Assembly (NCBI GenBank): GCA_040755975.1
Contig: JBFLZY010000007.1
Location: 3,041-67,040 of the forward strand
Reading direction: 5' to 3'
Source: Bacillota bacterium
GTDB taxonomy: Bacteria > Bacillota > Desulfotomaculia > Desulfotomaculales > Nap2-2B
Length of the DNA stretch: 64,000 nucleotides
Part shown: positions 9,476-25,420 of the stretch, one piece after another
Position numbering within the stretch: the stretch's first letter is position 1
Layout of the letters: each line of letters starts with the position of its first letter
Notes under the pieces: generated by a model
What the model saw: only the letters and a program-made list of their open reading frames with translations
The model's database searches: none
Told to the model about the DNA's origin: nothing
Translations under genes and position numbers: made by a program

Positions 9476-9509
9476 TAATGTATATTTTCTGGAGGAGGTT
9501 TTCAAAACA

Positions 9510-10211: not shown

Positions 10212-10520
10212 GGGGACCTCCGTCGGTTCGCTGACCTCACCCCCACCAGATTCGAAGTTAGATGTTCGAGATTCGAGGTTCAAAGCTTGTGGAAATTGGC
10301 TTCGCCAATTTCTTTTCTTCGAATTTCAAACGCCCAGTCACCATGAACGGTCTCTTCCTTACGGCTTTCGAACTTTCCTTCGTTTTTTCCGGACCCGGAA
10401 AAGAAAATTCGCGCTAAAGAAGAAGAGCAGGGAACCAATGGCTGCTTTTTTTCGTCTATCTTTTTAGAGGGTAAAAAGTTTTCTCCCTGATTTTTATTTT
10501 TCCGGTGAGGTGTTGGGAGG

Positions 10521-13145
10521 TTGGTCCTGGTCAGGAAAAAAGCTTTTTTATGGGTCCTTGTTTTGATTTTCAGTGTATTGGCTTTTCCTTGCGGAGTTTT
10601 TGCGGCGCCGGAAGGAGCGGATTCCCCGGTGCAAATTACCGCCGAAATCGGCTGGGACGGGCAGGGGGTGCCGGGGCGGACCGCGCCGGCGGTGATCCAC
10701 TTGAAAAATACTACCGCGGAAGATTTGCGGGGGGTGGTGGAGGTGGTCAATTACTTTCGCTATGTTCCGCCCCCGCCGCCCGGAACGGTTCAGCCGGGTA
10801 CGGTTTCTTCCAGCCCGGCCCGGTATTACCCGGTGTCTTCCTTTGGGGAGCAGGTATCCCTGCCCGCCGGGGGAGAAAAAAAGGTGACCATTTGGTTTCC
10901 GCTGCAGGGGACGACCGATCACTTGATTGTCCGCTTTCGCACAGGAGAAAAGACGCTGGCCGGCGTGGAAGCAAAGCTGGCCATGACCAGTGCCGGGGTC
11001 AGCGGACCCCTGCCCATGGCGGTGGGTGTTTTCGGAGAGATCCCGCCGGCTCTGGAAAAGGTGCGGATCACCATGCCCGACGGAGTTCCCCGGGCGCCGC
11101 TCGTTTTGAAATTAACTCCGGAGCTTTTGCCGCCGTCGGGAGATCAGTTGGACGCTTTCGGCCTTATTCTGGTCACCGGCGAAGCCGCCCGCAATTTAAC
11201 GGCGGAGCAGCGCCGGGCGCTTTTGGACTGGGCCGAAGCGGGCGGGCATTTGCTGCTGGCGGGCGGGACGGGGGTAAATGACGCGCTCTCGATTTTGCCG
11301 GCGGGCACGGCGAAAATCGTCAGCCAGGGAATTGCCGGCAACGGCGACTGGCGGGCGATGGCCGGCTGGTTGGGTCAGGCGCCTCCGGCGGGAGCCGCGC
11401 CGATAGCCCGGCTGCAGGGCGGAGACCCCTTCGGACCGGAAGAAAACCCCCTGGGCCGGCAGGTTACAACCGGGGGCGGAAAAGTGACGGTGTTTGCTTT
11501 CGATCCCACCCGCCCTCCGTGGGACGCCGGCGAAGCGGGTTGGGCGCTTTGGGAAAGGCTGCTGCAGCCGGGAGAGCCGGGTTCTTATAAGTATAACATG
11601 GCGTACCGGGACCCCCTTTTGCCGTTTTACAGGCTGATGAACACGGTGAACAGCCTCCCTGCCGGCGCCTTCCCCGGCTGGGGAGCGGTGGGGCTTTTCC
11701 TCGGTATTTTTGTGCTGCTGGCCGTGCCGCTCACATACTGGATTTTTAAAAAGCGGCAGCACCCCGAATACACCTGGGTGGCGGTTCCCGCCCTGGCCCT
11801 GGCGTTCTCCGGCCTCGCTTACTTTTATATGCTCCAGGCGGGGAAAAACGTCGTCGTCAACGTGGTCCAGGCTGTGGAGGAGACGGAAAAGGGGACTGCC
11901 GGGGAAAAACCGTTGCTTACGGCAGTGGGCTTTTTTGCTCCGACCAGGCCGGTTTTTCACGCCGTGCTGGCCGACCCCGGCCTTCCCGTGCGGGTTCAGT
12001 TTTCCGGGGAACGTCCGCCGGAACTGCGCAAGCCCGACGAGGAACCTCCCTATTCAGTTGTCAAGGGTTCGGATTTAACGGTTACCTTCCGGGAAATGTC
12101 CCAGTACGGGATGCGCCAGTTAAGCTTTCGCCAGGACGCCGGGGAGGCTTTGGCCGGCCTGCGGGCCGACCTTAGAATCGAAGGCGGCCGGTTGGCCGGA
12201 AAAGTGCGCAACGATACCGCCCTTTATCTGGATCACGTGACCCTGCTCCTGGGCGACGACTACCGGGGCCTGGGCGACCTGGCCCCCGGGGAGGAAAAGG
12301 AAGTGGCCATGGAAATTCCGGCGCCGCCGGTCTACAATCCCCAGAACCCTTACGGTCCGCGCTACCTTCCGGCCTGGCCGATCTTTGTGTTCCCGGAGGG
12401 GAAAGAAGCCGCCCTGAAAGCGGCTGTGCGGCCAGGCGTGCCCGCGCCGCGGCCGGATTACGGACCGCCCCCCCGCCGGCTGACCGTCGATGAGCAAAGG
12501 CGGGCAAATCTTTTAGAGCAACTGTTTAACTCCTCCCGCTACGGCGGCCCGGGAATGGAGTTCCAAAGGGGCCGCCCGTTAACCCTGGTGGCTTTCAGCC
12601 GGGACCCCGTCAAAGCGGTAGAGATCAAAGATTTGCGCTCCCGCCCCCATTATTTAAGCATTGTCACGGTCAAGCCGGAACTGTCCCTGTCGCCGGGCAG
12701 CTTTACAATTCCGGCGGGACTGACTCTTCCGGAAATCATCGACGCGCAAATCCGGGGCATTTCCGGGCATAATAACCTGTTCGGCCTGCCGGGGGGAAAC
12801 ATCACCTTCGCCTTTCGTCCCGGCCTGCCACAAGGGGCGCGAGTAAAGGAATTCACAGTCGATCTTCAGTATTTCCCCAGCTCCGCGCCGCCGGGTCTGC
12901 CGAAAGGCGCCGTCGGACCGCCGGCTCCGTCTGCCGCCGACGTGGAATCCGGCGTGCTGGAGATTTACCATCCACCCAGCGGGCAATGGCGGGAACTTTC
13001 CGGGGCCAAAACCTTCCGCCTTTCCGGGGAATACGCGCTGCCCGGCGGGGAAGTGCGCCTGCGGGTGAACGGTTTTGAACCCTCCACGGGGAAAAGCTTC
13101 TATTTCCTGCCGCCGGCGGTGGCCTACCAGGGGGTGCGGGAATGA
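10521..13145 (+). CDS. Large signal-peptide membrane protein, auxiliary component of the ABC/MoxR operon (unknown function)
   Basis: 874 aa. Signal peptide ...LAFPCGVFAAPEG, two central TM helices (about aa 385-440), and a segment LILVTGEAARNLTAEQRRALLDWAEAGGHLLLAGG reminiscent of GldG/DUF4350-type ABC auxiliary domains. The stop overlaps the ABC ATPase start (ATGA). Confidence 0.7.
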   Translation: MVLVRKKAFLWVLVLIFSVLAFPCGVFAAPEGADSPVQITAEIGWDGQGVPGRTAPAVIHLKNTTAEDLRGVVEVVNYFRYVPPPPPGTVQPGTVSSSPARYYPVSSFGEQVSLPAGGEKKVTIWFPLQGTTDHLIVRFRTGEKTLAGVEAKLAMTSAGVSGPLPMAVGVFGEIPPALEKVRITMPDGVPRAPLVLKLTPELLPPSGDQLDAFGLILVTGEAARNLTAEQRRALLDWAEAGGHLLLAGGTGVNDALSILPAGTAKIVSQGIAGNGDWRAMAGWLGQAPPAGAAPIARLQGGDPFGPEENPLGRQVTTGGGKVTVFAFDPTRPPWDAGEAGWALWERLLQPGEPGSYKYNMAYRDPLLPFYRLMNTVNSLPAGAFPGWGAVGLFLGIFVLLAVPLTYWIFKKRQHPEYTWVAVPALALAFSGLAYFYMLQAGKNVVVNVVQAVEETEKGTAGEKPLLTAVGFFAPTRPVFHAVLADPGLPVRVQFSGERPPELRKPDEEPPYSVVKGSDLTVTFREMSQYGMRQLSFRQDAGEALAGLRADLRIEGGRLAGKVRNDTALYLDHVTLLLGDDYRGLGDLAPGEEKEVAMEIPAPPVYNPQNPYGPRYLPAWPIFVFPEGKEAALKAAVRPGVPAPRPDYGPPPRRLTVDEQRRANLLEQLFNSSRYGGPGMEFQRGRPLTLVAFSRDPVKAVEIKDLRSRPHYLSIVTVKPELSLSPGSFTIPAGLTLPEIIDAQIRGISGHNNLFGLPGGNITFAFRPGLPQGARVKEFTVDLQYFPSSAPPGLPKGAVGPPAPSAADVESGVLEIYHPPSGQWRELSGAKTFRLSGEYALPGGEVRLRVNGFEPSTGKSFYFLPPAVAYQGVRE

Positions 13146-14071
13146 TTAAAGTACGTTCCTTGAAGAAAACTTACGGCCGCGTGCAGGCCCTTAAGGGGCT
13201 GGACATGGACGTACCGGCCGGCGCCGTTTACGGATTTATCGGCCAGAACGGGGCGGGGAAGACCACTACCCTGCGCATCCTGGCCGGACTGCTCGTCCCC
13301 GACGGGGGCACCGCGGAAGTGGCCGGGCTGGAGATCGGCAGGCACCCCCGCGCCTTGCGGGAGGTGGTGGGCTACATGCCCGATTTTTTCGGCGTCTACG
13401 ACGATTTAAGGGTCGGGGAGTACCTCCTTTTTTACGCCGCCGCGTACGGGATCAGGGGGCCGCGGGCCTTTAAACTGCGCGACGATCTGCTGGAACTGGT
13501 GGAGCTGGGGGAGAAGCGGGAAGCCTTTGTGGATACCCTCTCCCGCGGCATGCAGCAGCGGCTCTGCCTGGCCCGGGCTTTAATCCACGATCCCCGGGTG
13601 CTCCTTTTGGATGAGCCGGCCAGCGGCCTGGACCCCCTGGCGCGGGTGGAAATGCGGGAAATTTTAAAGGAACTGAGCAAACTGGGCAAAACGATTTTAA
13701 TCAGCAGCCATATCTTGTCGGAACTGGCCGACCTGTGCACGCACATCGGCATGATCACCGAAGGGCGGCTGGTGCGCCAGGGACCGCTCGCCGAATTGCT
13801 CAACGGCACCCCGGTGCAGACCATCATTTTGCGCTGCCACGGCCCGGCGGAGGCGGCCGAAAAGCTGGTGGCGGGCTGGCCGGGGGTGGAGGTGCTCCGT
13901 TCCCTGTCCGGGCAGATTGAATTCCGCCTGGCGGGAGGATCGGCGCAGGCGGCGGAGTTGTTAAAGGAACTGGTTCTCCGGGGCGTTCCGGTAACCCATT
14001 TTGCGCAGGAAGAACAAAGTCTGGAAGATACCTTCGTTCAGCTTGCCAGGGAGGGTGGCTTGGATGACTGA
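13142..14071 (+). CDS. ABC transporter ATP-binding protein (ABC-2 / drug-exporter type)
   Basis: Walker A GQNGAGKTT, signature LSRGMQQRL, Walker B LLLLDEPASGLD. Confidence 0.92.
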   Translation: MIKVRSLKKTYGRVQALKGLDMDVPAGAVYGFIGQNGAGKTTTLRILAGLLVPDGGTAEVAGLEIGRHPRALREVVGYMPDFFGVYDDLRVGEYLLFYAAAYGIRGPRAFKLRDDLLELVELGEKREAFVDTLSRGMQQRLCLARALIHDPRVLLLDEPASGLDPLARVEMREILKELSKLGKTILISSHILSELADLCTHIGMITEGRLVRQGPLAELLNGTPVQTIILRCHGPAEAAEKLVAGWPGVEVLRSLSGQIEFRLAGGSAQAAELLKELVLRGVPVTHFAQEEQSLEDTFVQLAREGGLDD

Positions 14072-15206
14072 AGAAGTTCGGGAGGAACAGAAAGGACAGG
14101 AACAGGAAAAAGAGGCCGCGGGGCAAAGAAAGGAAGGCGGGGCGAAACAAAGGCCGCAGGAGAAAAGGTTCTTTCTCCGGGACTGCTGGGAAGGCTTACG
14201 GTGCGGCCTGGCCCCGATGCTGGGCAAGGAAATGCGGGGGCGGACCCGGGGCTGGCGCTCACCTGTTCTGTTGTCCGTTTACCTGGGGGTGCTGGGTACC
14301 TTCGTGCTGTTGTTTCTCTGGCTGAACCTGGAGCGCTTGAGCATGATCCGGCCGCAGGTGGGATTATCCCTGTATTCCCTTTTTATTTTCAGTTTAATCA
14401 TGCTGATCTCTTTTATCGCCCCGGCCGTCGCCGCCGGCGCCATCAGCGGGGAAAGGGAAAGACGGACGTACGATTTGCTGCTGGTCACCAAGGCTTCTAT
14501 CCCGGGCATCGTGCTGGGGAAATGGCTGGCTTCCGTGGTTTACTTAATGTTTCTGGCGGTGGCCGCCCTGCCCGTTTTTGCCGTGGTTTTTCTTTACGGC
14601 GGGGTCCCGCCGGCCATTTTGGGTCTGGCCTTTGTGGTCTGCCTGGCCGCGGGCCTGGGCTACGGCGCCATGGGCCTGGCCCTGTCCGCGCTGACCCAGC
14701 GCAGCCAGGCGGCAATGATCATTTCGCTGGTTCTCGTCTTTTTCTTCATCTTCGGGATCCCGGTAATTACCGGTATTATCATGGCTAGCAATCCGCCCGG
14801 GCCGTCGCCCCAACCTCTCGGGCAGCCCGGCGCGGCGATTGCCGGCCCTCCCTGGTACGTTTTTTTAAGCCCGCTCACCGCTTTTACATCCGTCTTGCCC
14901 GGCACGGGCGAGTATGACCGGAACTGGGGCATCCCCCTGATTTCGGAGCTGATGAATATGCTTTTGAACCGGATGGTGCAGCCGGAAATGGTGGCCTACG
15001 CTTATAAAATGGGTTACACCACTGGTTATGTATTTCCCGGCTACCCCGGCGGGGTCGCAGCAAAGCCGGCGGGGCTGGCCGCCTGGGCGCCGTGGGCGCG
15101 TTTCACCCTTTACCAGGGGATTCTGATCCCGGTTTGCCTGGCCGCGGCCATCCTGGCCGTCGCCCCGCGCAAACCCTGGCCGTTCCACCGGGCGGGGAAA
15201 AAATAA
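14064..15206 (+). CDS. ABC-2 type transporter permease
   Basis: Track ORF 14001..15206. The likely start is ATG at 14064, overlapping the ATPase stop by 8 nt. A charged N-terminus is followed by about 6 hydrophobic helices. Confidence 0.75.
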   Translation: MTEEVREEQKGQEQEKEAAGQRKEGGAKQRPQEKRFFLRDCWEGLRCGLAPMLGKEMRGRTRGWRSPVLLSVYLGVLGTFVLLFLWLNLERLSMIRPQVGLSLYSLFIFSLIMLISFIAPAVAAGAISGERERRTYDLLLVTKASIPGIVLGKWLASVVYLMFLAVAALPVFAVVFLYGGVPPAILGLAFVVCLAAGLGYGAMGLALSALTQRSQAAMIISLVLVFFFIFGIPVITGIIMASNPPGPSPQPLGQPGAAIAGPPWYVFLSPLTAFTSVLPGTGEYDRNWGIPLISELMNMLLNRMVQPEMVAYAYKMGYTTGYVFPGYPGGVAAKPAGLAAWAPWARFTLYQGILIPVCLAAAILAVAPRKPWPFHRAGKK

Positions 15207-15246
15207 TTAACCACGGAGAGCACAGAAAGAGGACACAGAGGAGGGA
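15206..15246 (+). repeat. CACAGAG-type dispersed intergenic repeat, copy c
   Basis: ATTAACCACGGAGAGCACAGAAAGAGGACACAGAGGAGG sits immediately after the permease stop. Its 3' end supplies the RBS of the next gene. Confidence 0.5.
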
Positions 15247-17033
15247 TGGATATGCTTCGCAGGAAGCGGCATGACTGGCCCGACCGCAGGCTGGGGGAGG
15301 CGCTGGCGCCCCTGGCGGCGCGGGTGCGGGGGCGCTACTGGTTCGAAACCGGACGCCTGATGATCACCTGGGGCCTGGCCGTTGCCGCCGGCGTCCTGGT
15401 TCTGCTCAGGCTGACCCCGCTTTACTCTTGCCTGTTCCTGGCCGGAATAGGCGGGGCGGCTGCCGCGGTGGTTGTTTTTGTTTGGCGAAGTCTGTCCATC
15501 CCTGACGCCTTGAAAGTAGTGCAAATCGCCGACGAGCTGGGTTTAAACGGCGAGGCGGTTACGGCGTACCGCCTTCTGGAAAAGAAAAGGCAGGATTCCT
15601 GGAGCAAGTTTGCCGTTGAGAAGGGGGTTAGCGCTTGCCGGAACCTGCCGGGCGAAAGGTTGGATCCGCTTTTCCCCTCCTGGCGCCCCTGGCGGGGGAT
15701 TGTTTTCCTGACCGGGATTCTGGTGGTCACGATCCTGCTGCCCGCTCCGCTGGCCCCTTACTGGGAGGCCCGGCGGGCGGAAAAGGAAGCCTTGGCCGCG
15801 GCCGCCCGCCGGGCCGGAGAAGTGGTTGCCCAACTCCAGCAGATGCCGCCGGAACAAAAAGAATTTCTTCCGGAAAAATTAAGCGAAGAACTTGATGCCC
15901 TTCCCCGGACCGTCGGCGGAGCCAGGGACCGCCGGGAGGCCGCCCGGAACTTAGAGCGGGCGGGCCAGGAAATTGAAGATGTACTGGCCTTTTTAGAGCC
16001 GGCAGAAAGGAGTTTCCGGCAACTGGCCGGCGCCTGGAAAAACAGCCGGGAACCTCTCTTCGAGGAACTGGCCGCCGCCCTGGAAAAAGGCGATGAGCAG
16101 GAAATCGCCCGGCTGGCCGGGAAGTTGACAGAGCTGGCCAATTCTTCGGAAGCCGCGAAAAACAGGCTGGCTTTGGAAATGTTCCAGGCCGGCGAGGGCG
16201 TTGGCGACCCGGTCTGGCGGGAGAACCTGCGCAAGCTGGCCAGATCGCTCTTATCTTCCGGCGGAAACGAAGAAGCAGGGGGGAGCGGGGAAAGGGGAAG
16301 CGAATCCCTGGCCCGGGATCTGGCCGGCCTGGCGCGGCAGGCCGGAGCCGCCGGACGGCTGACGCAGGCTTCCGCGGCCATGTTTAATCTGGCCGGCGGA
16401 AATAATGCGGCGGCCATCGCCCGGGCCGGAAGCGGAACGGGTGCCCAACCGACAACAAACGCCGGCGGAACGGGAGGATCCGGAGGAGCTGCGGGCGGGT
16501 CCTCCGGCGCGGGTTCGGCGGCGGGTTCTGCCCCGGGTACCGGTTCAGGTTCGGCCGGGAGCAGCGGGGCAGGGGGCTCCGCCGGAGCAGGCGGCGCTTC
16601 GTCGGACGCCGGAGCCGGCGAGGGTACCGGCGGGCGTGCCGGCAATTCCGGGGGAACCAAAGGCGGCTCCGGCAACGGGCCAGGTTCCGGCTCCGGAAAT
16701 GAAGGCAGCGGCGGCGGAGCGGGCACGGGCGCCGGCGGGCCGGGCGCCGGCGGGCAGGGCGCGGGAACTGCCGGCGGCGGCTACGATCGGATTTACGCCC
16801 CGCATTTGCTGGGTGGTTCGGGACAGGAAACCCGGGTCGGCGGTCAGATCCGGCCGGGTCAGGCCGGGACCGAAACCGACTTGCCAGATTCTCCGGTCGA
16901 ACTGGGAGCGGTTCGTCCTTACCGGGAGGTCCTGCCTCTTTATAAGGAAGAAGCAATCAACTCCCTTTCTTCCGCTCCTTTGCCGCCCGACCTGGAATCG
17001 CTGGTGTGGCAATACTTTACCTCATTGGAATAG
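15246..17033 (+). CDS. Membrane protein with coiled-coil and a long Gly/Ser/Ala low-complexity region (unknown function)
   Basis: 595 aa. There are 3 predicted TM helices in the first 180 aa, then an Ala/Glu/Arg-rich helical region, then about 130 aa of G/S/A repeats (nt ~16400-16800), then a conserved-looking C-terminus ...LPLYKEEAINSLSSAPLPPDLESLVWQYFTSLE. ATG at 15252 has the better RBS spacing. Confidence 0.7.
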   Translation: MDMLRRKRHDWPDRRLGEALAPLAARVRGRYWFETGRLMITWGLAVAAGVLVLLRLTPLYSCLFLAGIGGAAAAVVVFVWRSLSIPDALKVVQIADELGLNGEAVTAYRLLEKKRQDSWSKFAVEKGVSACRNLPGERLDPLFPSWRPWRGIVFLTGILVVTILLPAPLAPYWEARRAEKEALAAAARRAGEVVAQLQQMPPEQKEFLPEKLSEELDALPRTVGGARDRREAARNLERAGQEIEDVLAFLEPAERSFRQLAGAWKNSREPLFEELAAALEKGDEQEIARLAGKLTELANSSEAAKNRLALEMFQAGEGVGDPVWRENLRKLARSLLSSGGNEEAGGSGERGSESLARDLAGLARQAGAAGRLTQASAAMFNLAGGNNAAAIARAGSGTGAQPTTNAGGTGGSGGAAGGSSGAGSAAGSAPGTGSGSAGSSGAGGSAGAGGASSDAGAGEGTGGRAGNSGGTKGGSGNGPGSGSGNEGSGGGAGTGAGGPGAGGQGAGTAGGGYDRIYAPHLLGGSGQETRVGGQIRPGQAGTETDLPDSPVELGAVRPYREVLPLYKEEAINSLSSAPLPPDLESLVWQYFTSLE

Positions 17034-17072
17034 ACAGGGAATTTTTTCTCCTGAGCAGGAAGGAGTCCGCTT

Positions 17073-18143
17073 ATGCCTGATCACACTGGTTCGGTAGAAA
17101 ATCAGGAAGCCAAGGAAGTCCCGCCAGCCGGGGTCGCCGGGGAAAGCGACGCCCTGGAGGAAGACGTTCCGGGAATCCTGGAAGGGGTTAAAAACCGTTT
17201 AAAAGAAATGGAAAACGCCATCGCCGGGGTGATCGTCGGCCAGGAAGAGGTTGTTCACCAGGTTTTAACCGCCCTGCTGGCCGGCGGGCACGTGCTTCTG
17301 GAAGGAGTGCCCGGCCTGGGCAAAACGGCGCTGGTCCGCACCGTGGCGCGGGTGACGGGGTTGACTTTCCGGCGCATCCAGTTTACTCCCGACTTAATGC
17401 CGGCTGACATTACCGGCACCCAGATTTTTGACGAGAAAGGGGCCGACGGTCCTTTCCGCTTTTCCCCGGGGCCGGTTTTTGCCAACATCGTCCTGGGCGA
17501 CGAGATTAACCGGGCCACGCCCAAAACCCAAAGCGCCCTGCTGGAAGCCATGCAGGAGCGTACGGTGACGTCAGGTGGGTTAACTTATCCTTTGCCGGAG
17601 CCTTTCTTTGTGCTGGCCACCCAGAACCCCCTGGAGATGGAGGGAACTTACCCTTTGCCGGAAGCGCAACTGGACCGTTTCTTGTTTAAGATTAACGTTT
17701 CCTATCCCAGCGCCGGGGAGCTGCTGGCCATCGCCGACCGGACCACCGGCGCCGCCGAGCCCCAGGCGCCCTCCCTGCTGGCGCCGGGGGAGTTGCGCGG
17801 CTGGCTGAAGCTGGTCCGCCGGGTGGTGGTTGTGGAGGACGTCATCGATTACGCGGTTCGCCTGGTGCTGGCCACCCAACCCGACAACCCCCGGGCCCCG
17901 GAAAGGGTCCGGCGTTTTGTACGCTACGGTTCCAGTCCGCGGGGCCTGCAGGCCCTGGTTCTGGGCGCACGGGCCGAAGCTCTCCGGGAAGGGCGCCCGC
18001 AGGCCGGGTACGCCGACGTCCGCCGGGTTGCCCCGGCGGCCCTCCGGCACCGCCTGATTTTAAGTTACGAAGCGGCGGCGGAAGGAATCGGGGCCGACGA
18101 GTTGGTGGCGGAAATCCTGGAAACTGTGCCGGTTCACCAATAA
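17073..18143 (+). CDS. MoxR-family AAA+ ATPase
   Basis: Walker A EGVPGLGKT; Walker B/sensor region IVLGDEINRATPKTQSALLEAMQE; ATQNPLEMEGTYPLPEAQLDRF is typical of MoxR. Confidence 0.92.
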   Translation: MPDHTGSVENQEAKEVPPAGVAGESDALEEDVPGILEGVKNRLKEMENAIAGVIVGQEEVVHQVLTALLAGGHVLLEGVPGLGKTALVRTVARVTGLTFRRIQFTPDLMPADITGTQIFDEKGADGPFRFSPGPVFANIVLGDEINRATPKTQSALLEAMQERTVTSGGLTYPLPEPFFVLATQNPLEMEGTYPLPEAQLDRFLFKINVSYPSAGELLAIADRTTGAAEPQAPSLLAPGELRGWLKLVRRVVVVEDVIDYAVRLVLATQPDNPRAPERVRRFVRYGSSPRGLQALVLGARAEALREGRPQAGYADVRRVAPAALRHRLILSYEAAAEGIGADELVAEILETVPVHQ

Positions 18144-18165
18144 CTTTCAGGGTGGGAAATTTATT

Positions 18166-19179
18166 TTGTTTGCCCATTTCGACGCCGATACCTTAAGACG
18201 CCTTGAGGGCTACCGGTTAATCCGGCAAACCCCTGTTTATGGCCGCCCCGGGGGCGTCCGGCGTTCTTTGCAGAAGGGCGGGGCGGTGGAGTTCGCCGAT
18301 TATCGCGAGTACGCCCCCGGCGATGAACTGCGGCGGGTGGACTGGAAAGCCTACGCCCGGCTTGGGCGGCTTTACGTGAAGGAATTTCTGGACGAGCGGC
18401 AGCAAACCACGCTTTTTCTTCTCGACGTCAGCGCCTCTATGGACTGGGGCGGTCCGCCGGCCCACAAGGGGAGATATGCCTTGCAGATTGCCGCCGGGCT
18501 GGGTACGTGCGCGCTGGCCGGAAGCGACCGGCTGGCGATCGTTTTCGCCGGCGGGGAAGGAAAATTGAAAGAAAAAGCGGAAATAGATAAGCATGAGGAA
18601 AAAGAAACTTTTGCCCGGGCAAATTTGCCGGACAGACAAGGACCTTCCTTGAGGGAAGCGACTGGCGAAGGGGGGACGGGCTGGCGGATATCTCCCGAAT
18701 TCAAGAGCCGGACAGCCCTGCCTGGTTTCTGGGATTTTCTTCGGTCGGCAAATTTTGGCGGCAGTGCCGGACTGGCGAGTAGTTTACATAATGCTATCAC
18801 ACTGGTCCGGGGAGCCAAAAGTGTTTATGTTTTTTCCGACCTTTACGATTTGCCCGACGTGCAGGAAATGTTCCGCCTGGCAGCCGGCCGGGGCATGGCG
18901 GTAACCCTCCTCCACATTTTGTCCCCGCAGGAAAGGGCGCCGGAAGGAGAGGGGGAGTACCTGCTGATCGATCCAGAAAGCGGCGCCAGGATTGAAATCA
19001 CCTTGAACCCGGCAGCGTACCTTGCTTATACACGGCGGCTGGAAATGTTTTTCCGCGAGCTGGACAGCTTCTGCCGCCGTTGGGGAGGAAAACGGGTCCT
19101 GCTGGACAGCGGTGAGGCGGTGACGGACACCCTGTTCAAAACCCTGCCCCGGGCGGGAGTACTGCAGCCAAGAGGGTAA
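18166..19179 (+). CDS. DUF58 domain protein (MoxR partner)
   Basis: Signature FADYREYAPGDELRRVDWKAYARLGRLYVKEF, followed by a degenerate VWA-like LFLLDVSASM. Confidence 0.85.
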   Translation: MFAHFDADTLRRLEGYRLIRQTPVYGRPGGVRRSLQKGGAVEFADYREYAPGDELRRVDWKAYARLGRLYVKEFLDERQQTTLFLLDVSASMDWGGPPAHKGRYALQIAAGLGTCALAGSDRLAIVFAGGEGKLKEKAEIDKHEEKETFARANLPDRQGPSLREATGEGGTGWRISPEFKSRTALPGFWDFLRSANFGGSAGLASSLHNAITLVRGAKSVYVFSDLYDLPDVQEMFRLAAGRGMAVTLLHILSPQERAPEGEGEYLLIDPESGARIEITLNPAAYLAYTRRLEMFFRELDSFCRRWGGKRVLLDSGEAVTDTLFKTLPRAGVLQPRG

Positions 19180-19311
19180 AATTGCGGGAGGACCACAGCG
19201 AAAAAGCCCACCTGAAGATTACTGAAACCGGTCACTTTGCCCGGAGCATGGCTTGTCCTTGCAGGAATACATATCCCTAATCCCTAACCCCTATTTTCTA
19301 AGGAGCTGGTT

Positions 19312-19536
19312 TTGGTGGTAAATCTGCTTCAGTTATTGTTCGCCCACCCGTTGGGCTGGTTTGTGCTGGCCGTGTACGCGGCGGTAGTTTTGCTGATGTG
19401 GTACATCATCTGGCGGGACCGCTTCCGGCGCGTCATCGGCACCTGGACAGCCGTCGAATGGACGTTGGTTGCGTTAATCTTATGTGTTTTTTGCCCTTTT
19501 GTTTATAATTACTATCGCGAAAAAGGGTTTTTATAG
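19312..19536 (+). CDS. Small two-TM membrane protein
   Basis: 74 aa with two hydrophobic helices. AAGGAG at 19300-19305. The start codon is uncertain (TTG 19312 or GTG 19315). Confidence 0.45.
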   Translation: MVVNLLQLLFAHPLGWFVLAVYAAVVLLMWYIIWRDRFRRVIGTWTAVEWTLVALILCVFCPFVYNYYREKGFL

Positions 19537-19715
19537 CAGGACCCCAAAAAACTTCTTCCTGATCAAGACAGAACATCGCCTTTTTGCCGACGAAAAAGGG
19601 AACTTTCCACGGATATCAAATTCTATAGGAATTTTTTTGTTATGCCTTCCAAATATGGAATGATAAGATACCCCCGGCATGGGGGCTTAAAATATTGCTT
19701 CATATGCCCATCTTT

Positions 19716-19754
19716 TAATTCTCTGCGATCTCTGTGTCCTCTGTGGTTGAATTT
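19716..19754 (-). repeat. CACAGAG-type dispersed intergenic repeat, copy d
   Basis: The minus strand reads TTCAACCACAGAGGACACAGAGATCGCAGAGAATTAA. It is inverted relative to copy c. Confidence 0.5.
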
Positions 19755-19806
19755 AGAAAGGGCCAAGCACATCAGCAGGCCGGTTAGAAAATAGAGGCGA
19801 TGTTTT

Positions 19807-21666
19807 ATGCATTTCTTTTCTCCCCAGACCCTCTGGCTGGCTTTGACCGTCCCGGCCATCCTGGCCTTGTACATCTTGCGTCCCCGGCATAAGCAAAAGA
19901 CTGTTCCCAGCACCCTTTTGTGGCGGCAGGCTGTTGCCCCGCAGGAGGCCACCCGTCCGTGGCAGCGCCTGAAAACCCAGCCCTTGCTCTGGCTGCAGTT
20001 GCTGGCCGCCGCCCTGCTTACCTTGGGTGCCGCCGCCCCCGTCTGGTATTTAAAGGAGCCTTCCCCCAGTACAATTGTCCTTTTAGACGCTTCAGCCAGC
20101 ATGCAGGCCGTTGATGGGCAAGAAACCCGCTTTTCCCGGGCGGTTTCGGAAGTCGAAGCGCTCGCCCGGGGATTAGAGAAGGGGGCCCGGCTGACCGTAA
20201 TTGCTTTTGACCGGCAGCCGCGCGTAATTGTCAAGGACAGCAACGACTACGCGGAAATCAAACGGGCCCTGGCGGAATTAAAACCTTCCCCGTTCAGCGC
20301 CGATCTCCGTCCGGCCCTTTCCCTGGCCGGGGCGCTGGCCGGGGAACAAAATCAGCCGCGCCTGCTGGTTTTTAGCGACGGCGGGTTAACCTGGCCGGCG
20401 GCAGAGGAAAAAAACGGCCTGGAGTTAAGGCTGGTCGGCTCCCGCCAGGCCGCCAACGTGGCCATTGCCTCCTTAAATCTCCGCCCGGCAGGAACGGGCC
20501 AGGCCGCGCTGGCCATGCTGGTGAACCGCGGCGCCGTCCCGGCTTCCGGAAAGGTTCACTTAAGCGCGGGCGACCGGCCGCGGGAAGCGAAAACATTTCA
20601 GCTGAAGCCGGGGGAGGCGGTTTCCTTTTTATGGTCCGATTTGCCGGGGGGCGTACCGGTGGCGGCAGAGTTGCAGGTTGACGATCCAGGAATGGATCAT
20701 TTCCCTTTGGATAATCAGGCCTGGGCCGTGCCCCAGGAAAAGCAGAAGAGAAAGGTCCTGCTGGTTACGGACGGGAATATCTTTCTGGAAAAGGTATTCA
20801 ACATTTTTCCCTGCCTCGACGTTTACAAAGTCACTTGTGAGCGCTATCCTGACCTGTTGACCGGCAGCTTTGGTTACGACCTCACCGTCCTGGACGGGGT
20901 GGCCAAACCGCTGCCGCCGGCGGGGGCCGTGCTTCTGCTCAACCCTCCGGCAGGGGAAAACATCCGCGGTTTGACGGCGGGAGAAGAATTCAAGCCCGGT
21001 GAACTGGTCCCGGAAGCAGGGAGTCCTTTGGTTGAATACGTGGATCTTTCCCAGGTGCACGTGGCCAGGGCGAATTCCCTGGAGCTGAAAAGCAACTGGC
21101 ACAAAGACGTCACGGCCGACGGAAAGGTTATCCTGGCGCACGGGGCGGCGCCGGAGGGGAGGACGGCGGTGCTTGGCTTCGGGTTGGGCGCTTCCGATCT
21201 TGCCCTGCGGCCCGCCTTTCCGGTTTTAATGCAGAACGTCCTTTCCTGGCTTCTGCCGCCCGACCTGGACGTCGCCGGCCAGGCCGCCCTGGGGGAGGAG
21301 ATAAAAATAAACGCGTGGGCGCGGGCGCAAAAGATTACCGTGGAAAATCCCGACGGGTCCGTACTTTCGCTTGCGCCCCCTTTTCCGCCCGCTCCCTGGG
21401 TGCCGGAAAAACCCGGCCTCTACCGGTTGACCCAGTACGTGCAGGCAGACGGACAAAGAATTTCAAGGGTGTCCCGCCTGGTCGCGGTCAACGGCTACAA
21501 CGAGCGGGAGTCGGACATCGTCTTAAAAGACCTGTCGTCCGCCGAAAAAGGGGGCGTCACACAATCTGTTCCGGAGCCGCGGCCCCTGCCGCTCGCTGGG
21601 GGACTGACCCTGCTTGCCCTGGTTGTGGTCCTGGTGGAATGGGGGGTGGCCAGCCGTGGGCATTAG
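19807..21666 (+). CDS. BatA-type (N-terminal double-TM) VWA domain membrane protein
   Basis: N-terminus FFSPQTLWLALTVPAILALYILRPRHK...LLWRQ is the aerotolerance-regulator N-terminal type. VWA MIDAS motif LLDASASM. C-terminal TM anchor. Confidence 0.85.
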   Translation: MHFFSPQTLWLALTVPAILALYILRPRHKQKTVPSTLLWRQAVAPQEATRPWQRLKTQPLLWLQLLAAALLTLGAAAPVWYLKEPSPSTIVLLDASASMQAVDGQETRFSRAVSEVEALARGLEKGARLTVIAFDRQPRVIVKDSNDYAEIKRALAELKPSPFSADLRPALSLAGALAGEQNQPRLLVFSDGGLTWPAAEEKNGLELRLVGSRQAANVAIASLNLRPAGTGQAALAMLVNRGAVPASGKVHLSAGDRPREAKTFQLKPGEAVSFLWSDLPGGVPVAAELQVDDPGMDHFPLDNQAWAVPQEKQKRKVLLVTDGNIFLEKVFNIFPCLDVYKVTCERYPDLLTGSFGYDLTVLDGVAKPLPPAGAVLLLNPPAGENIRGLTAGEEFKPGELVPEAGSPLVEYVDLSQVHVARANSLELKSNWHKDVTADGKVILAHGAAPEGRTAVLGFGLGASDLALRPAFPVLMQNVLSWLLPPDLDVAGQAALGEEIKINAWARAQKITVENPDGSVLSLAPPFPPAPWVPEKPGLYRLTQYVQADGQRISRVSRLVAVNGYNERESDIVLKDLSSAEKGGVTQSVPEPRPLPLAGGLTLLALVVVLVEWGVASRGH

Positions 21667-24600
21667 CTTCAGCAACCCCTGGTGGTGGCTGCTGATCCCG
21701 CCGGTCCTCCTGGCCGCCTGGTACCTGCGCCTGCCCTGGCTGAAGATGGCCCGCCGGCTCGGCGGTCCCCCCTGGCGCAAAGAAATCAGGCGTCTGGCCG
21801 TGCGCATTTGCCTTTTTCTTTTGCTGGGAGCCGCGCTGGCCGGTACGCACCTGGTGGCCGTGATTCAACGGCAGGCGGTTGTGTTTGCCCTGGACGCCTC
21901 CGCCAGCGTAGGCGCGGCGAAAGGCCAAGGGGAAGATTGGATTCGGGCGGCGCTGGCGAAAAAGCCTCCGGACGGGCTGGCCGGAGTCATTTCTTTTGGT
22001 GAAAGGGCGCTGGTGGAGGAGCCGCCCGAGCAGGCTCCTTCCTTTGTCCGGACGGGTACCGAACCGGGCGGCGGCGCCAGCAGAATAGGGGAGGCGCTGA
22101 ACCTGGCACAGGCCTTGCTGCCCGCAGAAGCCAGAAAAAGGGTGGTTTTGCTTTCGGACGGGCGCGATACCCAGGGGGAAGCGGTGACCGCGGCCCGGCA
22201 GCTCCACGCGCAGGGGGTGCGGGTGGACGTGGTCAAGCTGGGGGAAAAGGCCGGACCGGATCTCCGCCTGGAAAGCGTCAAACTTCCGCCGCGGGCCCGG
22301 GTGGGGGAAACATTTTCTTTAGAGGTTGTCGCCTTTGCCGGGAGCGAGGGGGCGGGAACCCTTTTTCTGGAACGGGACGGAAAACTCCTTGCCGCTGCCC
22401 CGGTTAATTTCCAGGCGGGCGAAAACCGCTACAGTGTTCCGGTCGAGGCGGGGAGCGGCGGCCTGCACAGTTACCGGGCTTACCTGGTGGCCGGGGACGG
22501 GCAAAAGGACGCCTTCGCCGCCAATAACGAGGCCGGAGCGGCCCAGGAGGTCACCGGTCCGCCGCGCGTCCTGGTGGTTGCTTCCCGGCCGGCGGAAGCA
22601 GAAGCGCTGGTGCGCTCGTTAAAGGCAACCGGAGAAATCGAAATTGACCTGGTTGACCCCGGACAGGTGCCGCGGGGGCTCCCCGCCTGGGCGCGGTATC
22701 AGGCGGTCTTTCTGGTCGACGTGCCGGCGTACAGCCTGGGGGAAAAAGCCATGGCCGAAATCGAGGCTTACGTCCGCGACGGCGGCGGTGGGCTGGTCAT
22801 GACCGGCGGGCCGGATTCCTTCGGTCCGGGCGGGTATACCGGGACGCCCGTGGAGAGGGCTTTGCCGGTAAAAATGGATATTTCCGGACGGGGCGAGCTT
22901 CCCTCCCTGGGCCTGGTGCTGGTCATCGATAAATCCGGGAGTATGGCCGAATATGCCGGCGGGGCGGATAAAATCAACCTGGCCAAGGAGGCCGCCGCCC
23001 GCAGCGTGACTGTCCTCACCGACCGGGACCAGGTTGGCGTAATTGCCTTTGATACGCTTCCCTGGTGGGTGGTTCCCCTGGGCCCCGCTCAAGATAAGGA
23101 AAGCATCCGGAAGGAAATCGGGCGTATTTACGCCGATGGCGGGACGGAAATTTACCCGTCGCTGGCCGCCGCCTACGCGGCGCTAAAGCAGGCGCCTACC
23201 CAGGTCAAACATATTATTTTGTTGACGGACGGTATTTCGGCAAGCGGCGGCCCCTACCAAAAACTTCTGGAAGAGATGCGGGGCGCCGGAATTACCCTGA
23301 CCTGCGTGGCGGTTGGCGAAGGGGCCGACACCGGAATGCTCCGGGCCCTGGCTGAACTGGGTCGGGGGCGTTATTACGCCACCGCCGAGGCCGGCAGCAT
23401 CCCCTCGATTTTTACTAAAGAAACGGTAATGGCCACCCGCAGCTTCGCCGTTAACGAAAGATTTGTTCCGGGGGTTGCCGCCCCCAGCGTGTTGCTACAG
23501 GGAATCCGGAAGGCGCCGGCCCTGGATGGGTACGTGGCGGCCTCGCCCAAAGACAGGGCCGAGGTGGCGCTGGTTTCCCACCGGGGCGATCCCGTGCTGG
23601 CCGCCTGGCAGTACGGGCTGGGCCGGGCGGTGGCCTGGACTCCTGACGCCGCCGGGCGCTGGAGTGCCGCCTGGGCGGCCGGTCAGCTCTTTCCCCGGCT
23701 GTGGGGAAACGTCCTCTCCTGGATTTTGCCGGCGGTAAATACCGGCTCCGTCCAGGTCGCCACCACAGTTGAAGAAAGCGGGGACGTCCGGATCGTGGTC
23801 GACGACCCGGCGCACTGGCAACAGGTGGGCAACTATTCCCTGCGGATTACCGGGCCTGCTGGAGAGACGAAGGACGTTGCGCTGACTCCCGCCGGCCCGG
23901 GGCGCTACACCGCCCGGATCACGGCACCGGGAACCGGCGCCAGCCTGATCAGCGTGATGTCGTCCGGCGATGCCGGGCAGGTCCTGATCGGACGAAGCGC
24001 GCTGGTGATCCCTTATCCTGCGGAATACAAGGAAACGGGCGCCGACCTCGCCCGCCTGGAAGAAATTGCCCGGGCCGGAGGCGGCGAGGTGCTCGTCTAT
24101 CCCGAACAGGCCTTTGCCCCCAACCTGCGCCCGGTGCGGGCGAGCAGGGATCTTACCGGCCTGCTCTTAATCCTGGCCGGCCTTTGCTGGCTGCTGGACG
24201 TGGCCGGGCGGCGCTTGAGTTTCGGGACCGAAGAGCGGGAAGCTCTAAAAAGGTCCTGGGCTCAGGTTCGCGCGCACCTGGCTTTCCGGCAGGCAAGGGC
24301 GCGCCGGGAAGCCGATCCTTCCCCCTCCTGGGCCGGGCAGACCCTGGCCAGGGTGGAGAATCTGCGGATCCAAAAAAGGGGCCGGGGAGGTGCGGCTTCC
24401 GGCGGCTTAGCCGGAGCAGCCGGTTCCGGGCCGGTCAAAGCAGCCGGACCCGCTCCGGCCGAAGGCACTGGAAAAGGTACGGGAACATTCCCGGCGGTCC
24501 GGGAAGAGGCAGGCAAAAAAGATCTCTTTTCCGATCCCGGCAGCCGCGAGCCGGTTTCCCCGGAAAACAGACTTCCGGGGCGCCCGGATGGCAAAGCCGG

Positions 24601-24685
24601 GGAAGATACCGCAGCCACGCTCCTGGCTGCTAAAAGGCGGCGGAAAGAAGAGCAGGGCTCAGGGAAGAAGAATCAGGTAAAATAG
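21656..24685 (+). CDS. Giant BatA-type membrane protein with two VWA domains flanking a class-I glutamine-amidotransferase-like domain
   Basis: Track ORF 21614..24685. The likely start is GTG at 21656, overlapping the upstream stop by 11 nt. Elements: FSNPWWWLLIPPVLLAAWYLR double-TM; VWA1 FALDASAS; GATase1-like block RVLVVAS...YVRDGGGGLVMTGGPDSFG; VWA2 VLVIDKSGSM; late TM helix; disordered G/A/P/K tail. Confidence 0.85.
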   Translation: MGISFSNPWWWLLIPPVLLAAWYLRLPWLKMARRLGGPPWRKEIRRLAVRICLFLLLGAALAGTHLVAVIQRQAVVFALDASASVGAAKGQGEDWIRAALAKKPPDGLAGVISFGERALVEEPPEQAPSFVRTGTEPGGGASRIGEALNLAQALLPAEARKRVVLLSDGRDTQGEAVTAARQLHAQGVRVDVVKLGEKAGPDLRLESVKLPPRARVGETFSLEVVAFAGSEGAGTLFLERDGKLLAAAPVNFQAGENRYSVPVEAGSGGLHSYRAYLVAGDGQKDAFAANNEAGAAQEVTGPPRVLVVASRPAEAEALVRSLKATGEIEIDLVDPGQVPRGLPAWARYQAVFLVDVPAYSLGEKAMAEIEAYVRDGGGGLVMTGGPDSFGPGGYTGTPVERALPVKMDISGRGELPSLGLVLVIDKSGSMAEYAGGADKINLAKEAAARSVTVLTDRDQVGVIAFDTLPWWVVPLGPAQDKESIRKEIGRIYADGGTEIYPSLAAAYAALKQAPTQVKHIILLTDGISASGGPYQKLLEEMRGAGITLTCVAVGEGADTGMLRALAELGRGRYYATAEAGSIPSIFTKETVMATRSFAVNERFVPGVAAPSVLLQGIRKAPALDGYVAASPKDRAEVALVSHRGDPVLAAWQYGLGRAVAWTPDAAGRWSAAWAAGQLFPRLWGNVLSWILPAVNTGSVQVATTVEESGDVRIVVDDPAHWQQVGNYSLRITGPAGETKDVALTPAGPGRYTARITAPGTGASLISVMSSGDAGQVLIGRSALVIPYPAEYKETGADLARLEEIARAGGGEVLVYPEQAFAPNLRPVRASRDLTGLLLILAGLCWLLDVAGRRLSFGTEEREALKRSWAQVRAHLAFRQARARREADPSPSWAGQTLARVENLRIQKRGRGGAASGGLAGAAGSGPVKAAGPAPAEGTGKGTGTFPAVREEAGKKDLFSDPGSREPVSPENRLPGRPDGKAGEDTAATLLAAKRRRKEEQGSGKKNQVK

Positions 24686-24692
24686 ATTCCAT

Positions 24693-24722
24693 TTGCACAT
24701 TCTGTACAGAATGTGCTATCAT
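24693..24722 (+). promoter_or_regulatory. Candidate sigma-A promoter with an embedded perfect 22-bp palindromic operator upstream of the TA pair
   Basis: TTGCAC (24693-98), 18 nt, TATCAT (24717-22). The palindrome GCACATTCTGT/ACAGAATGTGC occupies 24695-24716. Confidence 0.5.
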
Positions 24723-24733
24723 GAAGGTAAGAG

Positions 24734-25162
24734 GTGATGCTGATGCTGGAAGAATTGAAGTTTACCGAAGCTCGCGGCGACTTCTCAACCCTGTACAGCA
24801 GAGTCTTCAACCACTACCGGCCGGTAATCATCAGGCGCAGGCAGGCGGAAGAAGTCCTGGTCCTGCGGGCCGATCTCCAGAAGCTGCTCCTGGAAAAGTA
24901 CAGGCTCAAACCGGAGGTCATCAGGGAAGAGGACGGATCTGTCACCCTGGCCCTGGATGAGCTTGAGCTTTACGCCAACGGCCGGACGGTGGAAGAGGCC
25001 GCGCAGGAACTGGTCCAGGACTTGAAGTTCTATGCCCAGGACTATCTTGAACGCTCCCAGCTTTTCATCAACGCTCCTAACCGGCGGGCGCACTTCCCGT
25101 ACATCCTGCGCGTACTGCTCTGCGGCAGCGACGAAGAAATTCGGAGCCTGCTGGAGATTTGA
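24734..25162 (+). CDS. Type II antitoxin, Phd/YefM-like N-terminal domain with a HicB-like C-terminal segment
   Basis: LKFTEARGDFSTLYSRVFNHYRPVIIRRRQAEEVLVLRADL resembles the Phd/YefM pattern. ELYANGRTVEEAAQELVQDLKFYAQDY resembles HicB-type antitoxins. The true start is probably ATG at 24737 or 24743. The stop overlaps the start of the downstream gene. Confidence 0.55.
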   Translation: MMLMLEELKFTEARGDFSTLYSRVFNHYRPVIIRRRQAEEVLVLRADLQKLLLEKYRLKPEVIREEDGSVTLALDELELYANGRTVEEAAQELVQDLKFYAQDYLERSQLFINAPNRRAHFPYILRVLLCGSDEEIRSLLEI

Positions 25163-25389
25163 AAATGCCTCCTAAATTTGGGGACTTGAAGCGAGACTGC
25201 GAAAAGAACGGTTGGGTGCTGATCCGGAGCACCGACCACTGGTACTATGAAAAGGCCCTGGACGACGGTACCGTGCTCCGGACGAAGGTGAGCCGTGCGG
25301 TACACAAAGAAATTCCGAAGCAGTTGTGGCAGAGGATTCTCAAAAAGCAGCTGAAGATAACTGAAAAAGAGTTTTGGGGGTCTCTTTAA
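25159..25389 (+). CDS. HicA/YcfA-like mRNA-interferase toxin
   Basis: About 75 aa. NGWVLIRSTDHWYYEK...HKEIPKQLWQRILKKQLKITEKEF fits the HicA pattern (GF.xxR..GSH ... H.xxL..GTL..IL). The likely start is ATG at 25165. Confidence 0.55.
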   Translation: MKMPPKFGDLKRDCEKNGWVLIRSTDHWYYEKALDDGTVLRTKVSRAVHKEIPKQLWQRILKKQLKITEKEFWGSL

Positions 25390-25420
25390 TGCCAAAAGAT
25401 TCCCAGCTTTTAAATCCTAC

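Follow-up and report, generated by a model that had tools for sequence, protein, structure and literature searches.

Clusters in which a MoxR AAA+ ATPase is encoded together with a DUF58 protein and proteins carrying von Willebrand factor A (VWA) domains, the Bat-type clusters, are to our knowledge among the most widespread bacterial gene sets without a known biochemical function. A second group of systems combines an ABC-2 transporter (ABC, ATP-binding cassette) with a large extracytoplasmic partner. NosDFY is such a complex; it matures the periplasmic nitrous oxide reductase (N2OR) and is a precedent for extracytoplasmic assembly rather than bulk export. For the GldA-GldF-GldG transporter of Bacteroidota we know of no established substrate. 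In archaea, an arCOG01314 (DUF4350)-MoxR-vWA set has been predicted to form a secretion or membrane-remodelling complex (Makarova, Galperin and Koonin, 2015; PMC5898192). Here we describe a cluster of nine open reading frames (ORFs), g1 to g9 in gene order, in a 64,000-nt stretch of contig JBFLZY010000007.1 from a Bacillota bacterium of the Desulfotomaculales, in the following called the window; coordinates of the cluster are positions in this window. The cluster consists of two modules, the ABC-2 module g1-g2-g3 and the Bat-like module g4-MoxR-DUF58-g8-g9. Its parts are of known kinds, a Bat-type module and a GldAFG-like ABC-2 transporter, and the literature searched (DUF7408, DUF4350 plus MoxR, GldG plus MoxR, and the Lachnospiraceae cluster described below) contains no description of their fused arrangement. 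With little more than even confidence, we propose that the genes encode one modular two-ATPase cell-envelope system, which assembles or remodels a scaffold of ectodomains bearing metal ion-dependent adhesion sites (MIDAS) at the outer face of the membrane.

Related loci were collected by a genome scan for g4, seeded with a 10-sequence alignment, and by neighbourhood look-ups. This gave 23 loci, which were compared in a tblastn table. The sampling was seeded with g1, g4 and MoxR and is not an unbiased census, and several loci are metagenome-assembled genomes (MAGs) with possibly wrong binning. The order g1-g2-g3-g4-g5-g6-g8-g9 was found in every locus long enough to show it: among the Bacillota in Desulfoscipio gibsoniae, Peptococcaceae BRH_c8a, Desulfofundulus, Desulfovirgula, Desulfallas, several Moorellales-like MAGs and Cohnella, and elsewhere in four Chloroflexota MAGs and one contig binned as Sphingomonadaceae. 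The gene order reported in the preliminary description of this DNA is thus not confined to one genome; it spans four Bacillota classes and Chloroflexota, at protein identities of 23-97 %. Desulfofundulus, Desulfoscipio and Moorellales-like MAGs encode homologues of g1 at 43-90 % identity, and homologues of g4 extend to Paenibacillus, Cohnella and Chloroflexota. The identities of the ABC, MoxR and g9 proteins partition the loci alike, and the cluster therefore appears to be co-inherited as a unit. The proteins of the Sphingomonadaceae-labelled contig (JBLNDL010000033.1) are 67-79 % identical to the Chloroflexota and 46-61 % identical to the Bacillota versions; this contig is probably mis-binned, or else the genes were horizontally transferred.

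In Lachnospiraceae the cluster is more divergent, and the order is a g1-like gene, ABC ATPase, ABC-2 permease, g4-like gene, MoxR, DUF58 and a single g8-g9 fusion of 1486-1604 aa. Hidden Markov models built from the first orthologue set recognized every gene of these clusters, and the fusion supports the idea that g8 and g9 act as one unit. The g1-like family of Lachnospiraceae comprises more than 100 clusters at 90 % identity, including Roseburia and Blautia MAGs, and occurs abundantly in gut metagenomes, some of its clusters holding 400-1400 sequences. The conserved unit has eight genes, or seven in loci with a g8-g9 fusion. Of the nine-gene unit assumed previously, these eight genes stand, and the 74-aa ORF g7, present in only one other locus, is not part of the core.

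Each module was also found on its own. The ABC trio without the MoxR module is present in a Planctomycetota MAG and on another contig (L004 and L006), with a distant g1 homologue. The sample for modules lacking the ABC genes came from a MoxR-seeded metagenome scan, whose loci (at least 80) carry generic MoxR genes of 46-59 % identity and not true orthologues. Among the matches listed, three loci (L027, L039 and L043; 10 kb upstream examined) contain MoxR, DUF58, g8-like and g9-like genes without the ABC trio. In ABC-less loci, too, a g4-like protein adjoins MoxR, and g4 therefore belongs to the MoxR module. These g4-like proteins share a transmembrane (TM) hairpin, an A(D/R)xL..L segment, a third TM segment, a coiled coil, a low-complexity linker and a C-terminal domain of the pattern Y..Y......P....L..(V/I)..YF. 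Where the two modules are joined, they are joined in at least three arrangements. Besides the window type, there is one locus in which the g1-like gene, the ABC ATPase and the permease are located 3′ of g8 (L049), and another with two ABC genes and a g1-like gene upstream at a different spacing (L050). Three gene orders at the junction, together with conservation across phyla, argue for functional coupling and not for chance adjacency. The coupling is recurrent but facultative, and the earlier reading of the locus as a fusion of an ABC-2 and a Bat-like module agrees with modules that are found alone and joined in different orders.

In Desulfofundulus thermosubterraneus (L015, 10258-15090 of that locus), approximately 4.8 kb of opposite-strand genes lie between g4 and MoxR, so that the cluster forms two transcription units. 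The inserted genes encode BNR/sortilin-like, PIN, PD40 beta-propeller, TPR and FG-GAP repeat proteins. Because the insertion is on the opposite strand, a single transcript is not obligatory.

Table 1. Features of the cluster and of its Lachnospiraceae relatives. Positions refer to the window, except for the g8-g9 fusions, which carry the positions of their own loci.
Feature	Position	Strand	Size	Description
Terminator-like hairpin	10291-10313	+		10-bp stem followed by a T-run; closes the unrelated upstream B3/4-domain gene and marks the 5′ boundary of the cluster
g1	10521-13145	+	874 aa	ABC accessory protein, two predicted ectodomains
g1/g2 junction	13142		4 nt	ATGA overlap
g2	13142-14071	+	309 aa	ABC ATPase of the ABC-2/ABCA/DrrA/NosF type, DrrA-like C-terminal domain
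g2/g3 junction	14064		8 nt	Overlap, ATG start
g3	14064-15206	+	380 aa	ABC-2 permease, ABC2_membrane_2 (80 bits; the family also holds NosY and GldF)
g3/g4 junction			39 nt	Gap
g4	15246-17033	+	595 aa	Member of the MoxR module
g4/g5 junction			39 nt	Gap
g5	17073-18143	+	356 aa	MoxR-proper AAA+ ATPase, predicted cytoplasmic, no TM segment
g5/g6 junction			22 nt	Gap
g6	18166-19179	+	337 aa	DUF58 (102 bits; cut-off 23.4), VWA-like, predicted cytoplasmic, no TM segment
g6-g8 spacer	19180-19806	+	627 nt	GC 0.47 compared with ~0.62 in the cluster
g6/g7 junction			132 nt	Gap
g7	19312-19536	+	74 aa	Two-TM ORF inside the g6-g8 spacer, good ribosome binding site
g7/g8 junction			270 nt	Gap
g8	19807-21666	+	619 aa	BatA_N (51 bits) and VWA_2 (60 bits)
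g8/g9 junction	21656		11 nt	Overlap, GTG start
g9	21656-24685	+	1009 aa	Two VWA domains and GATase1_like (44 bits)
g8-g9 fusion, L047	11878-16392			Lachnospiraceae
g8-g9 fusion, L104	17679-22046			Lachnospiraceae
g8-g9 fusion, L105	11726-16186			Lachnospiraceae

The products of g2 and g3 show the features of an ABC-2 (type V) transporter: an ABC_tran nucleotide-binding domain (NBD) with the full motif set, an adjoining permease of an ABC2_membrane family and an 8-nt overlap of the two genes. Walker A, Walker B, signature and H-loop of g2 are kept in 18 of 18 sequences. In Pfam, g2 matches ABC_tran (96 bits) and DrrA1-3_C, and in NCBIfam the DrrA subfamily (222 bits) and GldA (198 bits), each under its own cut-off. 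Its nearest solved relatives are ABCA7, ABCA4, ABCA1, NosF and Rv1218c, with the NosF match covering the full length (residues 2-299). Hydropathy predicts no TM segment in g2, and exact-match queries with g2 and with the protein P0009 retrieved no record. For g3, hydropathy predicts an extracytoplasmic loop of ~100 aa ahead of the last TM segment. The permease carries a conserved motif, GE.ERRT..LLL.T, and a PDB search returned no sequence relative with a solved structure.

The accessory protein g1 was analysed by hydropathy and by an AlphaFold2 model (mean predicted local distance difference test (pLDDT) 81.8, predicted TM-score 0.80). The predicted layout is a signal or anchor helix, a beta-sandwich (residues ~37-152), a flavodoxin-like domain (~167-348), a TM hairpin (387-440) and a beta-rich part of ~430 aa, which places ectodomain blocks on both sides of the hairpin. 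The sole Pfam match is DUF4350, below threshold (25.8 versus 30.4 bits); NCBIfam returned no match for g1, and GldG/ABC_transp_aux (PF09822) was not matched. The Cohnella orthologue passes the threshold of DUF7408 (36.1 versus 27 bits), and other orthologues show weak matches to DUF4350, ThuA and IFT52_GIFT. DUF4350 has been tied to the GldG/IFT52 'GIFT' superfamily by Makarova et al. (PMC5898192). Orthologues of g1 invariably adjoin the ABC pair. From its domain matches, g1 is assigned as an ABC accessory protein of the GldG/GIFT/DUF4350 type. A Foldseek search of the g1 model against the PDB gave generic beta-sandwich matches only, with TM-scores of at most 0.13, and no structural homologue could be named.

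The second large protein, g4, starts with a basic N-terminus, a TM hairpin, a conserved AD.LGL segment, a third TM segment and a helical region of ~225 aa. A disordered Gly/Ser/Ala linker of ~115 aa and a conserved domain of ~80 aa (RPY.EVY..Y..EA....LPP.L..LV..YF) follow. In the AlphaFold2 model, residues 14-395 are helical (pLDDT about 90) and residues 397-513 disordered, followed by the small terminal domain. No Pfam or NCBIfam family matches g4, Foldseek against the PDB returned generic helical-bundle matches only, and the PDB sequence search found no solved relative for g4 or for g1. An exhaustive search of 1.84 billion representative proteins for the C-terminal domain of g4 yielded 99 clusters, in which the domain is always C-terminal and the proteins are 440-630 aa long. 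By this sequence criterion the g4 family is small, coherent and without a Pfam model. It may be a distant branch of DUF4175 (PF13779, cut-off 27.3 bits): g4 itself does not match this model, and sub-threshold matches were obtained for two relatives, P0160 (22.1 bits) and a 700-aa protein of L027 (7796-9895 of that locus; 16.5 bits). The preliminary description had counted g1 and g4 as two large unannotated envelope proteins. Neither belongs to a well-characterized family according to Pfam, NCBIfam, Foldseek and the PDB sequence search, but g1 can be annotated as a GldG/GIFT/DUF4350-type protein and g4 as a part of the MoxR module.

The MoxR ATPase g5 matches AAA_3 (211 bits) and AAA_lid_2 in Pfam, and PDB entry 2r44 with 254 bits. 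It also passes the Pfam threshold of bpMoxR (44 bits), a match far weaker than that to AAA_3. Walker A, Walker B and sensor 1 of g5 are kept in 16 of 16 sequences. The DxSxS motif of the MIDAS type is invariant at four sites, one in DUF58, one in g8 and two in g9, in every orthologue (16/16 for g6, 15/15 for g8 and 11/11 for both motifs of g9). The DUF58 protein g6 contains a charged insert of ~55 aa (18520-18700, residues about 120-180), which is missing from most orthologues (297-305 aa) and is the least conserved stretch in comparison with the sister MAG L010.

For g8, a BatA_N double-TM segment with a conserved basic loop is followed by a predicted ectodomain, composed of the VWA domain with its MIDAS, a beta-sandwich and a flavodoxin-like domain, and by a C-terminal TM segment. 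In g9, Pfam places a VWA domain, the N-terminal half of DUF4350, a second VWA domain and the C-terminal half of GATase1_like in this order; the C-terminal TM segment (residues 833-851) precedes a low-complexity tail of ~158 aa, which is predicted to be cytoplasmic. Structure-level relatives of g9 are the BatB structure 3ibs, 4jdu and the STM1381-like 2gk3. Profile-profile comparison aligned residues 2-375 of g8 with 4-366 of g9 (probability 99.2) and 388-612 of g8 with 596-849 of g9 (probability 86), which identifies the two proteins as paralogues at the sequence level. The same method detected no relationship of g1 to g8 or to g4. Judged from the domain order, g9 appears to be a g8 with a second VWA domain inserted into the DUF4350/GATase1-like domain (22600-23720, residues about 316-690) and with the tail added. 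The position of a VWA domain within another domain recalls the I-domain insertion of integrins. Hydropathy and the positive-inside rule predict that the basic BatA_N loop is cytoplasmic and that the VWA and GATase1-like parts are outside. The VWA domain of the BatA-type protein BB0173 has been located experimentally in the periplasm (PMC5700661), and by analogy we place the VWA domains of g8 and g9 outside the membrane.

All nine ORFs are co-oriented on the + strand. Their coordinates, including the three overlaps reported before, were confirmed, and the earlier domain calls for g2, g3, g5, g6, g8 and g9 were reproduced by Pfam. The description of a tight nine-gene block holds for most of the junctions, which are short, but not for the lower-GC stretch of 627 nt that parts g6 from g8. 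Besides g7, this spacer holds 270 nt of non-coding DNA. In other loci it is 22 to 729 nt long and contains no common ORF. Outside the window, g7 occurs solely in L010, a MAG 85-97 % identical to the window, and it is absent from all other related loci examined (about two dozen). The comparison with L010 showed 94-99 % identity over 19304-19806, in coding and non-coding parts, whereas the first ~120 nt of the spacer (19180-19303) have diverged with indels. Since the flanking non-coding DNA is conserved as well as g7 itself in the sole other carrier, g7 could not be validated as a gene. In the spacer, a consensus scan gave no convincing candidate for an internal promoter or terminator. This stretch could be an insertion specific to the lineage, or it could act as an internal promoter region.

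The edges of the cluster are clean on both sides. On the 5′ side, an untranslated leader or promoter region of ~200 nt lies between the terminator-like hairpin and g1, and the preceding tRNA-editing and B3/4-domain genes are unrelated. Directly 3′ of g9, a PHD_like antitoxin (24734-25162, 190 bits) is encoded together with a HicA-like toxin (25165-25389), whose match of 22 bits is below threshold. This toxin-antitoxin pair has a promoter-like site with TG extension (24694-24722) in front of it and a convergent DUF763 gene beyond it. Rfam detected no RNA element within positions 9000-26000 of the window. In two Moorellales-like MAGs (L003, 1-3370; L009, 1702-5108), genes for an extracytoplasmic function (ECF) sigma factor, a zf-HC2 anti-sigma factor and a second pair of ABC ATPase and ABC-2 permease are located directly 5′ of g1. 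This arrangement could be a regulatory link to envelope stress.

Gene content, order, modularity, and catalytic and MIDAS motifs were read from the loci, and the folds were predicted; the topology, contacts, cargo and physiological role of the two-ATPase system that we favour are put forward as follows. The g1 protein would partner g2 and g3 as GldG partners GldA and GldF; held by its TM hairpin, it would display its GIFT/DUF4350-type flavodoxin-like and beta-sandwich domains at the outer face. In the cytoplasm, a MoxR hexamer would be combined with DUF58 as a VWA-like adaptor. g8 and g9 would place their VWA domains, with the MIDAS, and their GATase1-like domains outside the membrane, and g4 would supply its long helical region as a stalk, together with the flexible Gly/Ser linker and the small conserved terminal domain. 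In a first step, the related flavodoxin-like domains of g1, g8 and g9 may form a hetero-oligomeric ectodomain platform; the oligomerizing trimerization domain of beta-galactosidase is a relative of DUF4350 (PMC5898192). In a second step, MoxR-DUF58 might set the assembly or affinity state of this platform from the inside, via the basic BatA_N loops and the g9 tail, in an integrin-like, inside-out manner. Finally, the ABC motor would either supply the platform with a cargo, a lipid or a polymer, or drive conformational work of g1, as NosFY does for NosD. The output is likely to be an extracytoplasmic structure that is built or maintained in monoderm envelopes. The surface-assembly machine of the preliminary description is what we infer from these parts. 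According to a title cited in PMC5700661, cell morphology and envelope are impaired in mutants of the MoxR-DUF58 operon RL3499-RL3502 of Rhizobium, and such mutants grow poorly on complex medium in transposon sequencing (PMC5118466); these envelope phenotypes fit an envelope role.

Several points weigh against the proposed system. The evidence for this type of cluster is at the level of sequence throughout, and the topologies are predicted from hydropathy and the positive-inside rule, with a single experimentally studied homologue as a guide. The cluster contains no obvious gene for a cargo or client. In profile-profile comparison, the flavodoxin-like domains of g1 and g9 resemble each other weakly (hhalign probability 30). 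The 627-nt spacer and the 4.8-kb insertion in D. thermosubterraneus indicate that co-transcription of both halves is dispensable, and the many MoxR-DUF58-g8-g9 modules occurring without the ABC trio make the coupling facultative. A bolder version of the proposal would see a self-contained machine of the monoderm envelope, also in the abundant gut Lachnospiraceae, with an ABC-2 motor acting through a GldG-like lever (g1) and a cytoplasmic MoxR-DUF58 remodeller, which together operate an integrin-like g8/g9/g4 scaffold; such a machine would represent a novel kind of apparatus for assembly or secretion across the membrane and would reveal the biochemical role of Bat-type MoxR-VWA systems. We regard this version as doubtful.

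Among the other explanations, true export is the most serious one, although we consider it rather unlikely. g2 and g3 would then be a type V exporter of a lipid, lipid-linked glycan or polymer, which g1 receives and the MIDAS sites of g8 and g9 bind or anchor, and MoxR-DUF58 would only mature the scaffold. The NBD of g2 has its nearest relatives among the ABCA lipid exporters and in the DrrA and GldA subfamilies, the permease g3 falls into ABC2_membrane_2, and domains of the GIFT and ThuA types have been associated with proteins that handle sugars (PMC5898192). The beta-sandwiches of the ectodomains resemble glycosidase accessory domains, though only generically, and the low Foldseek TM-scores given above are functionally uninformative. 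Moreover, no conserved glycosyltransferase, polymerase or lipid-synthesis gene was present in or beside the cluster in the loci examined.

It is also conceivable, but unlikely in our view, that g2 and g3 transport nothing and that their ATP cycle moves the g1 ectodomains, which load, release or rearrange the VWA scaffold. Such mechanotransmission has precedents in NosFY acting on NosD and in MacB, LolCDE and FtsEX acting on periplasmic partners. The absence of cargo-synthesis genes is in line with it, as are the full-length match to NosF, which is among the closest solved bacterial NBD relatives of g2, and the place of g3 in the NosY/GldF family of Pfam. The conserved TM hairpin of g1 between two large ectodomains would be a suitable lever. 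This analogy holds at the family level only, and g1 lacks a beta-helix like that of NosD. The missing cargo-synthesis genes slightly favour mechanotransmission, and the ABCA, DrrA and GldA affinities slightly favour export.

That the locus consists of two independent neighbours, an ABC-2 efflux pump for drugs or peptides and a Bat-type stress module, is improbable. Both modules exist apart elsewhere, the 627-nt spacer lies inside the cluster, and the cluster is split in D. thermosubterraneus. In contrast, adjacency is kept across phyla from about 25 % up to 97 % identity, the two modules are found joined in at least three gene orders, the gaps at g3/g4 and g4/g5 are just 39 nt, and a DUF4350/GldG-like protein has been linked independently to MoxR-vWA in archaea (PMC5898192). 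Least probable of all is a conflict, defence or aerotolerance system comparable with the MoxR-vWA-beta-propeller ternary systems, Pseudomonas Arc2 (PA4317-23) or Bacteroides BatI: g5 passes the bpMoxR threshold, a MoxR/VWF cluster aids P. aeruginosa against interbacterial antagonism (PMC8926400) and the Bat operon is named after an aerotolerance phenotype, but among the nine ORFs Pfam detected neither a sensor of the beta-propeller type nor an effector, a kinase, an FHA partner, BatC, BatD or BatE, PADLOC found only generic ABC-ATPase similarity, the carriers include strict anaerobes as well as the aerobes Paenibacillus and Cohnella, and Leptospira bat mutants are reported to give no support for a role in oxidative stress (PMC3557215). 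A sporulation-specific role was set aside, as the carriers include Chloroflexota.

The recurrent tie of a Bat-like module to an ABC-2 transporter with a GldG-like accessory protein narrows the hypotheses on Bat-type systems to work at the outer face of the membrane, and it supplies testable pairs of partners, g1 with g8 or g9 and MoxR-DUF58 with the BatA_N loops. Carriers include culturable Paenibacillus and Cohnella, Desulfotomaculia and gut Lachnospiraceae such as Roseburia and Blautia, so that genetic and structural work is feasible and its outcome would be relevant to the cell envelope of dominant gut commensals. In addition, two protein families without a Pfam model, the g4 family and the two-ectodomain type of g1, have been defined and could be deposited as new families. 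Together, this opens a new experimental route to the function of Bat-type systems.

How does the cluster relate to the systems described so far? The archaeal sets link a GldG-like DUF4350 protein to a COG0714 MoxR, a DUF58-type vWA protein and further membrane and extracellular proteins, and the cluster shows a comparable association with g1 as a putative DUF4350-like member. The archaeal sets have been described without an ABC transporter and without BatA_N-type VWA proteins, whereas the DUF4350-like protein of the window comes with an ABC partner. They also include Ig-like, S-layer-type membrane proteins (arCOG02884, PF07760), for which this cluster shows no Pfam match. Furthermore, the DUF4350 match of g1 is below threshold, and its layout differs by the central TM hairpin and the second ectodomain. 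With NosDFY, the cluster shares the combination of a large extracytoplasmic partner with an NBD like that of NosF and a permease of the NosY family, but g1 is unrelated to the beta-helix protein NosD, and the nos genes, a copper chaperone and N2OR are all absent here.

The resemblance to GldA-GldF-GldG and ABC_transp_aux is one of architecture, not of family membership. In both cases an ABC ATPase and an ABC2_membrane_2 permease are joined by a large anchored accessory protein with a GIFT-type flavodoxin-like domain. The scores of g2 (198 bits) and g3 (34 bits) are far lower than the equivalog cut-offs of GldA (TIGR03522, 402.6 bits) and GldF (TIGR03518, 288.5 bits), and g1 does not match GldG. 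In the window the accessory gene comes first, and its product g1 differs by the TM hairpin in its centre and by a further ectodomain of ~430 aa. The host bacteria are monoderm and lack genes for gliding or the type IX secretion system.

The MoxR module was compared with the Bacteroides BatI operon, Borrelia bb0170-0176, the Leptospira bat genes and Rhizobium RL3499-RL3502. As in these Bat-type systems, a MoxR-proper AAA+ ATPase is followed by DUF58 (g5 then g6), and membrane proteins with a BatA_N double-TM segment carry a MIDAS-containing VWA domain that is predicted to be outside. The BatC and BatE TPR proteins and BatD were not found by Pfam in the nine ORFs and the orthologous loci. The VWA proteins of the cluster are two to three times larger than those of Bat-type systems and contain beta-sandwich and GATase1-like/DUF4350-like domains; in g9 a VWA domain appears to be inserted into the GATase1-like/DUF4350-like domain, and the stalk protein g4 is added. 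The most distinctive difference is the ABC-2 trio that is attached to the Bat-like module here.

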